A DNA stretch of 64,000 bases from Rickettsiales bacterium (lineage in GTDB: Bacteria > Pseudomonadota > Alphaproteobacteria > Rickettsiales > UBA8987): contig OZ244955.1 of the NCBI GenBank assembly GCA_965222525.1, forward strand, positions 640,140-704,139, written 5' to 3'. The notes beneath the pieces are model-generated. The model ran no database searches, was not told where the DNA came from, and saw only the letters and a list, made by a program, of their open reading frames with translations. Both the position numbers and the translations under genes were made by a program. Positions 37,278 through 37,433 of the stretch are shown one piece after another (the first letter of the stretch is position 1; the number at the start of each line of letters is the position of its first letter).

Positions 37278-37433
37278 GTCACCCCGGACGCATATTTTGT
37301 CCAAATCTATGATTTGGCTAGAAAATAGCGTTCTCGGGGTTATTGTCTAGTTACGTATCTTTGCCTATAACCCCGAGAATGGTGTTTTCTGACTGAATCA
37401 TAGATTCAGAGAAAACATACCATCCGGGGTGAC
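37278..37433 (+). repeat. structured palindromic repeat family A, copy 2 (156 bp)
   Basis: Termini GTCACCCCGGA...TCCGGGGTGAC, inner stem TTCTCGGGGTTAT/ATAACCCCGAGAA, side hairpins CCAAATC/GATTTGG and CTGAATC/GATTCAG. It lies directly downstream of atpC. Confidence 0.85.

Follow-up and report, generated by a model that had tools for sequence, protein, structure and literature searches.

The locus and its surroundings

The 64-kb stretch of DNA analysed here, called the window below, holds three dispersed copies of a palindromic repeat, family A, each of them intergenic and 16-34 kb apart (Table 1). The copies follow a putative gene (ORF 2627-3028, which has no family match), atpC and queH, and precede dsbB, a methyltransferase gene and an M16 peptidase gene, with both neighbours of every copy on the same strand. 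The original prediction had placed the repeats at gene 3' ends, and each copy does begin shortly past a stop codon. For the peptidase, a start at ATG 53191 is more likely than one at GTG 53209, which lies inside copy 3. Relative to transcription, the orientation of the copies is mixed (2:1). The triplets flanking them are AAA/GGG for copy 1, CGC/ATA for copy 2 and GTA/GTA for copy 3, so that a fixed-length target-site duplication is not consistent among the copies; the 3-bp repeat of copy 3 is of a kind expected at least once among three copies with a chance of about 5%. No transposase or RAYT gene was found in the window. The host is an uncultured alphaproteobacterium. Its AtpD protein is 84-90% identical to proteins some of which are labelled Rhodospirillales or Rickettsiales, and its AtpC is a singleton with no close relative, the next-best database match being 60% identical.

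Several other features of the window were recorded. The atpHAGDC operon (37451-46412, minus strand) is broken by two 23S-rRNA-IVP genes, a methyltransferase gene, a BrnA antitoxin gene and unknown ORFs, and two related contigs (L063 and L066) carry the same methyltransferase gene between atpG and atpD, along with other inserted small genes. Intergenic spacers contain heptamer arrays of three types; two 38-mers among them, at 38296 and 39895, are 95% identical and sit at the 5' junctions of small genes that have entered the atp operon. Many toxin-antitoxin components (HicB-like, ParE, BrnA, MazF/PemK) are scattered among the housekeeping genes at 8834-9265, 31311-31574, 39654-39917 and 60701-61039. 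An unbranched palindrome of 147 nt (48685-48831), with 19-nt termini that are 95% complementary and a DNA fold z-score of -7.4, immediately follows the stop codon that ends a 690-aa kinase-like ORF.

Table 1. Positions of the repeats, their parts and associated features within the window
Feature	Position	Strand	Description
Family A copy 1	3063..3254	+	192 nt; covariance model score 157 bits
Copy 1, outer stem	3063-3074/3243-3254		
Copy 1, left arm	3075-3118		
Copy 1, central hairpin	3119-3168		
Copy 1, right arm	3169-3242		with insertion of ~30 nt
Copy 1, neighbours			34 nt after stop of ORF 2627-3028; 79 nt before dsbB, same strand
Family A copy 2	37277..37434	+	158 nt; covariance model score 180 bits
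Copy 2, outer stem	37277-37288/37423-37434		
Copy 2, left arm	37289-37330		
Copy 2, inner stem	37331-37343/37367-37379		
Copy 2, variable centre	37344-37366		
Copy 2, right arm	37380-37422		
Copy 2, neighbours			16 nt after atpC stop; 91 nt before methyltransferase gene, same strand
Family A copy 3	53204..53361	- (inverted)	158 nt; covariance model score 177 bits
Copy 3, neighbours			7 nt after queH stop; 12 nt before M16 peptidase gene, same strand
Possible degenerate relative of family A	36014..36184	+	171 nt; termini TGTCATCCTGAAC/GTTCAGCATGACA; covariance model E 0.81 (weak)
Family B copy 1	45618..45845	+	between atpH and atpA; mini-hairpin in left arm
Family B copy 2	51643..51861	+	between M16 peptidase stop and trpE; without mini-hairpin; MFE is the four-way junction
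Mini-hairpin in family A copy 1	3191..3219	+	29 nt, TCCACC-TTCGCTAAAGCTAT-GGTGGA; right-arm apical loop
Mini-hairpin in family B copy 1	45660-45688	inverted relative to A copy 1	left-arm loop
Host hairpin	3031..3286		arms 3031-3057 and 3260-3286, 23 bp; apical loop holds family A copy 1
Heptamer arrays, ATCATCC type	37871-37900, 38296-38333, 39895-39932		
Heptamer arrays, GGAAACT type	41387-41417, 41827-41866, 18665-18690		
Heptamer arrays, AGGTTAC type	7727-7778, 24300-24329, 3298-3324		

Anatomy of family A

All three copies first described from the sequence, at 156-190 bp, are present, and they measure 158-192 nt once a conserved flanking T/A is added. Their outer termini, TGTCACCCCGGA/TCCGGGGTGACA, form a stem of 12 bp that is perfect in every copy (6 of 6 ends), and the ends read TG...CA. 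The terminal motif GTCACCCCGGA occurs exactly six times, at the six family A termini, compared with a chance expectation of 0.66 with one mismatch allowed. An inner stem of 13 bp, TTCTCGGGGTTAT/ATAACCCCGAGAA, is found at all six positions where it is expected. The layout proposed at the outset, with an outer and an inner stem in common and a hairpin arm to either side, is accordingly seen in all three copies, and the differences between them are also as quoted: the right-arm apical stems are CGAAATC/GATTTCG in copy 1, CTGAATC/GATTCAG in copy 2 and CCAAAT/ATTTGG in copy 3, the basal G-C/T-A exchange is there, and copy 1 carries the extra CCACC/GGTGG hairpin.

The left arm is homologous to the reverse complement of the right arm, down to a bulge on the 3' side (2 nt, or 3-4 nt in copy 1), which identifies family A as an inverted duplication of a half of about 66 nt. 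A half is made up of the terminal 12-mer, an arm (a hairpin with a bulge) and one side of the inner stem, and the two halves flank a centre of 23-26 nt; the imperfect inverted symmetry reaches about 66 nt in from each end. A four-way junction forms on either DNA strand, or in an extruded cruciform, both arms being hairpins in their own right.

The repeats have no conserved reading frame. All six frames are interrupted by stops in copies 1 and 2, and the lone open frame of copy 3 is not conserved. A 68-aa ORF annotated over copy 3 (P0241; window 53118-53384, plus strand) is without homologue and probably spurious; as a protein query, copy 3 in translation matched only itself and, by chance, a long repetitive eukaryotic-looking protein.

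Fold, covariation and the arm hairpins

Folded as RNA, the copies have z-scores of -9.6 to -13.1, and none of 200 shuffles folds as well. The four-way junction originally predicted for all copies depends on the parameters used: under DNA parameters it is the minimum free energy structure in all the strands that were folded, two each for copies 2 and 3 and, for copy 1 with its flanks, the plus strand; under RNA parameters it is so in copy 1 only. In copies 2 and 3, RNA parameters favour by about 8 kcal/mol a long hairpin made by pairing one arm to the other (-80.7 vs -71.9 kcal/mol for the four-way junction in copy 2, and -74.3 vs -65.9 kcal/mol in copy 3). G·T pairs bring no gain under DNA parameters, and the transcribed strand is not consistently more stable than its complement.

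The substitutions that separate the copies distinguish between the two folds. The four-way junction has 58 pairs, with 98.9% of cells paired and five pairs (six cells) changed on both sides, all of them in the arm hairpins (one in the left arm, four in the right). Its five covarying pairs are matched by 3-4 of 500 column shuffles and by none of the slid controls. The long hairpin has 56 pairs, 95.8% of cells paired and a single double-sided change in a bulge region, a level that 170 of 500 shuffles match. The changes in the right arm keep the local hairpin and disrupt pairing to the left arm. Covariation thus supports the local arm hairpins and not the pairing of one arm to the other, with the proviso that, at three copies, these statistics are indicative rather than rigorous; related sequences can beat shuffles in the absence of structure.

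When the six homologous arms are taken as samples of one 18-bp hairpin, the 108 pair cells comprise 107 Watson-Crick pairs, a single G·G mismatch and no G·T. At 8 of the 18 positions the arms use two or three different Watson-Crick pairs; four of the ten double changes are transversion swaps, for example C-G to G-C, and in the arm of copy 2 two adjacent pairs have changed together. Covariation and Watson-Crick arms bear out the initial observation that the arm stems differ and stay complementary, together with its corollary that complementarity is actively maintained. The pattern is unlike the wobble-mediated, transition-rich change that is usual in RNA stems and fits maintenance at the level of DNA. 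Template switching in quasi-palindromes gives multi-base, perfectly complementary changes, and can yield compensatory changes in one event (PMC8794818). Between selection on the fold and hairpin-templated correction, the all-Watson-Crick, transversion-rich arms of these three copies lean towards a DNA-level process.

Uneven conservation

Identity between copies varies strongly by region. It is 100% in the outer stem, 92-100% in the inner stem, 91-100% in the base of the right arm and 86-95% in the left arm, and falls to 61-74% in the right-arm apex and 42-52% in the centre of 23-26 nt. The copies are therefore not decaying uniformly. The termini, inner stem and left arm are constrained, the right-arm apex need only stay a hairpin and the centre can vary freely. 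Constraint on terminal and subterminal parts is as expected for sequences that need to be recognised. The unpaired linkers are also conserved between copies; they would fit a host function too, and to that extent count against a mobile repeat.

A second family and nested insertions

A covariance model built from the three copies and run over the whole window without filters scores strongly on those copies only. It also matches, over its full length, two copies of a second repeat, family B, at 45625-45835 (E ~5e-4) and 51650-51851 (E ~3e-5). The family B copies are about 90% identical to each other and directly follow the stops of atpH and the M16 peptidase gene. Their sequence is unlike that of family A and their plan is alike: a G/C-rich outer stem encloses a central hairpin flanked by two A/T-rich arms, one on the left and one on the right. 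Their arms too differ by double changes, GCAATC/GATTGC in one copy vs GAAAGC/GCTTTC in the other, and AGAAATTCT/AGAATTTCT vs AGAAATCC/GGATTTCT.

The two families share a mini-hairpin of 29 nt. Within family A only copy 1 has it, in the right-arm apical loop; family B copy 1 carries it in the opposite orientation, in the loop of its left arm. The loop CGCTAAAGCTA is common to both occurrences, the stem has undergone a compensatory change from CCACC/GGTGG in family A to CCTCC/GGAGG in family B, and in both cases the mini-hairpin sits in the loop of a GAAATC/GATTTC stem. Nesting continues outwards, as family A copy 1, with the mini-hairpin in its arm loop, itself lies in the loop of a host hairpin, which has a fold z-score of -4.2 once the element is removed. 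The spacer between atpH and atpA, which holds family B copy 1, spans 290 bp in the window, compared with 20-40 bp in four related contigs, and family B copy 1 is therefore an insertion. The shared mini-hairpin, the position of family A copy 1 and the enlarged atpH-atpA spacer together point to insertion into hairpin loops.

A solo hairpin at 20947-21008, composed of units that resemble the heptamers (TTGAGTGCTAAGT.../...ACTCAGCACTCAA), matches family B's central module, which suggests that the repeats are mosaics of exchangeable modules.

Relatives outside the three copies

Terminus and inner-stem patterns searched against GTDB representatives, JGI metagenomes and IMG/VR returned no further copy of family A; the pattern matches in these collections were single chance matches in unrelated, mostly high-G+C taxa or within coding sequence. 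The covariance model found nothing convincing on seven contigs of relatives, including those carrying atp genes. Its weak match at L063:3748-3838 belongs to a different multi-hairpin element that lies after priA (L063:3711-3840). A text search of the literature with the terminal and inner-stem sequences recovered primer coincidences only. Branched palindromes with TAGAGCAT termini are present in related alphaproteobacterial contigs, at L063:15334-15611 (z -12.6) and L062:19465-19731 (z -8.4), and such elements seem to be common in this lineage.

Within the window, the termini of the segment at 36014-36184 are self-complementary at 12 of 13 positions, its 5' end is identical to the family A terminus at 10 of 13, and the two sides differ from family A by complementary changes. 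The segment shares only this terminal motif, its interior cannot be aligned, and as a relative it is a weak candidate. One relative has an IS1595-family transposase gene directly downstream of atpC (L062:10690-11405). The ends of this IS1595 element, GGGGCTGACACCT/AGGTGTCAGCCCC, look like the terminus of family A in reversed reading direction; this was rejected as evidence on account of the wrong orientation and the lack of such ends in the window, and the resemblance is probably a coincidence.

Comparison with known element families

Small selfish palindromic repeats are well known in bacteria. The Correia elements of Neisseria, the ERIC sequences of Enterobacteriaceae and the Rickettsia palindromic elements are non-coding, lineage-restricted repeats of 100-200 bp that end in inverted repeats, are scattered through transcribed intergenic regions and exist in size variants that arose by internal insertion. 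They form one long imperfect hairpin, whereas covariation in family A favours a branched fold. Correia elements have TA duplications, and family A has none that are consistent; Rickettsia palindromic elements often insert in frame in genes, while the family A copies are all intergenic.

Paired REP sequences also invite comparison. Head-tagged CGTC/TGTC REP dimers with structured spacers are typical of Alphaproteobacteria, where most lie downstream of ORFs and no transposase dedicated to them is known (Di Nocera et al. 2013, PMC3733652), and compensatory changes are frequent in the hairpins of REPINs (Bertels & Rainey 2011, PMC3116915). Compared by description, as the consensus sequences of published REP families appear only in figures, REP dimers and REPINs resemble family A in consisting of two homologous inverted hairpin units with a poorly conserved spacer between them, in folding either as separate units or as one big hairpin with compensatory changes being common, and in lying mainly downstream of ORFs between same-strand genes of an alphaproteobacterial host. 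The family A termini start with TGTC, which has been described as a variant of the CGTC head of REPs, and a structured spacer is a feature of some REP dimers as well. Family A has what characterises a REPIN, namely an inverted doublet of hairpins with a variable spacer and compensatory changes. It is not a pair of REPs in the strict sense of 20-40-nt imperfect palindromes with a GTAG or CGTC (TGTC/CCTC) head, its TGTC head notwithstanding. REPs have stems of 8-9 bp and loops of 4-5 nt, whereas family A is 158-192 bp long, the 8-nt stem beside its TGTC head pairs more than 134 nt away instead of across such a loop, it has an additional inner stem of 13 bp, and no RAYT gene was seen in the window.

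Among the hallmarks of MITEs, family A has terminal inverted repeats, small size, no coding capacity and multiple dispersed copies, and lacks the target-site duplication of fixed length. Because of this lack, and because the size and stem-loop geometry of REP units are not those of family A, we regard it as working like these elements and assign it to no named family.

Two further parallels concern parts of the pattern. In cyanobacteria, Elhai and colleagues reportedly described in 2008 hairpin units of 20-30 nt that are nested in larger repeats and absent from some copies. These are like the 29-nt mini-hairpin in family A copy 1 and family B copy 1, and heptamer arrays are found here too; phylum and sequences differ, and mobility of the mini-hairpin would rest on its two occurrences. 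The wobble-free, multi-base double changes of the family A arms, with adjacent double changes in copy 2 and C-G/G-C swaps, are like those described for quasi-palindrome correction (Ripley; Lovett; Mönttinen & Löytynoja 2022, PMC8794818). Quasi-palindrome correction is, however, a mutational mechanism and not an element family, and it leaves the dispersal of copies and their invariant termini unexplained.

Alternative explanations

Transcripts very probably include the repeats, since all family A and family B copies lie between same-strand genes, 0-35 nt past stops, and it is natural to ask whether the branched fold is selected as RNA, either as a small RNA gene or as a cis-acting structured element of operon transcripts that stabilises the mRNA, directs RNase processing or modulates translation. 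The great stability of the RNA folds, the compensatory changes and the conserved unpaired linkers are all compatible with such a role. REP, ERIC and Correia elements are known for RNA-level action once transcribed (see also PMC3733652). We nevertheless consider selection as RNA unlikely to be the main explanation. Rfam gave no match at gathering score in the window, and the sub-threshold matches were to generic hairpin families only (miRNA precursors, snoR127 and nqrA-II, the last at 22.4 bits vs a gathering score of 55). There is also no excess of promoter-like sites at the copies, the transcribed strand has no consistent advantage in stability, and the absence of G·U from all 108 arm pair cells, the many transversions among the double changes, the 2:1 orientation and the preference of RNA parameters for the long hairpin in copies 2 and 3, which covariation does not support, all speak against it. 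The structured non-coding RNA among the original candidates is left unsupported for these reasons, and a role as RNA element is possible as a secondary function. Termination or attenuation of transcription at gene 3' ends, another early candidate, would agree with the location of the copies directly past stops and with their strong G+C-rich stems, and the A/T-rich hairpin around copy 1 may be what was originally the 3' hairpin of the preceding ORF. The terminator scan, however, was empty at the elements, with no T-tract after the structure on either strand of any copy; copy 3 ends 12 nt short of the start codon of the next gene, and family B copy 1, alike in topology, lies inside the ATP synthase operon, where efficient termination would be harmful. 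A terminator or attenuator is thus extremely improbable.

The DNA-like signature of the arms could instead mark a site that is bound but not itself mobile, for example by a cruciform- or junction-binding protein of the host or of a mobile element, a site of attC or dif type, or a landing pad for insertion sequences that target hairpins. Strict Watson-Crick complementarity on both strands, a four-way junction as the DNA minimum free energy structure, invariant termini and left arm, and insertions placed exactly in hairpin loops are what such a site might display. We find it very doubtful, as there is no integrase, recombinase or cassette array near the copies, whose neighbours are housekeeping genes such as atpC, queH and dsbB, 16-34 kb separate the copies and the sequence of the centre is unconstrained. 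The termini, TGTCACC/GGTGACA, are likewise not the RYYYAAC...GTTRRRY cores of an integron attC site. A more radical proposal, of a behaviour not described before, is that small hairpin modules insert specifically into the apical loops of others, as in the series from mini-hairpin through arm loop and family A to host hairpin, and in repeated rounds build branched four-way-junction mosaics, the arms being kept complementary by recognition and copying as folded single-stranded DNA through a structure-specific enzyme; families A and B would then have their topology in common because the enzyme reads shape and not sequence. We judge this decidedly improbable.

A probable lineage-restricted palindromic repeat

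The most probable reading, to which we give a probability of about 0.6, is that family A is a new lineage-restricted, non-coding palindromic repeat of the MITE, REP dimer, REPIN or mosaic kind. It was the mobile palindromic element among the original candidates that proved the best fit, given perfect terminal inverted repeats, small size, no protein-coding potential, scattered intergenic copies and nesting together with further palindromes. As a repeat of this kind, family A may be spreading, or may once have spread, into short spacers behind stop codons, preferably into the loops of existing hairpins. A trans-acting factor encoded elsewhere in the genome would probably recognise the conserved termini and the left arm. 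The arm hairpins would be held perfectly Watson-Crick at the DNA level, and a likely cause of their complementarity would be template switching during replication within the hairpin, that is, quasi-palindrome correction, combined with selection for a hairpin needed by the mobilising enzyme. Lying between same-strand genes, the copies are probably co-transcribed and would add stem-loops to operon mRNAs as a side effect, which would not be the reason for the existence of family A.

What is known of REP- and MITE-type elements is unaltered by family A. The compensatory changes of DNA type in its arms do carry a lesson for the annotation of RNA, as covariation alone is no proof of a functional RNA. 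With loops nested in loops and a second family built to the same shape, structure-directed insertion could become open to test. If confirmed across the genome, family A would add a new family of repeats to a sparsely sampled lineage of Alphaproteobacteria; it would aid annotation there and could be used for strain typing.
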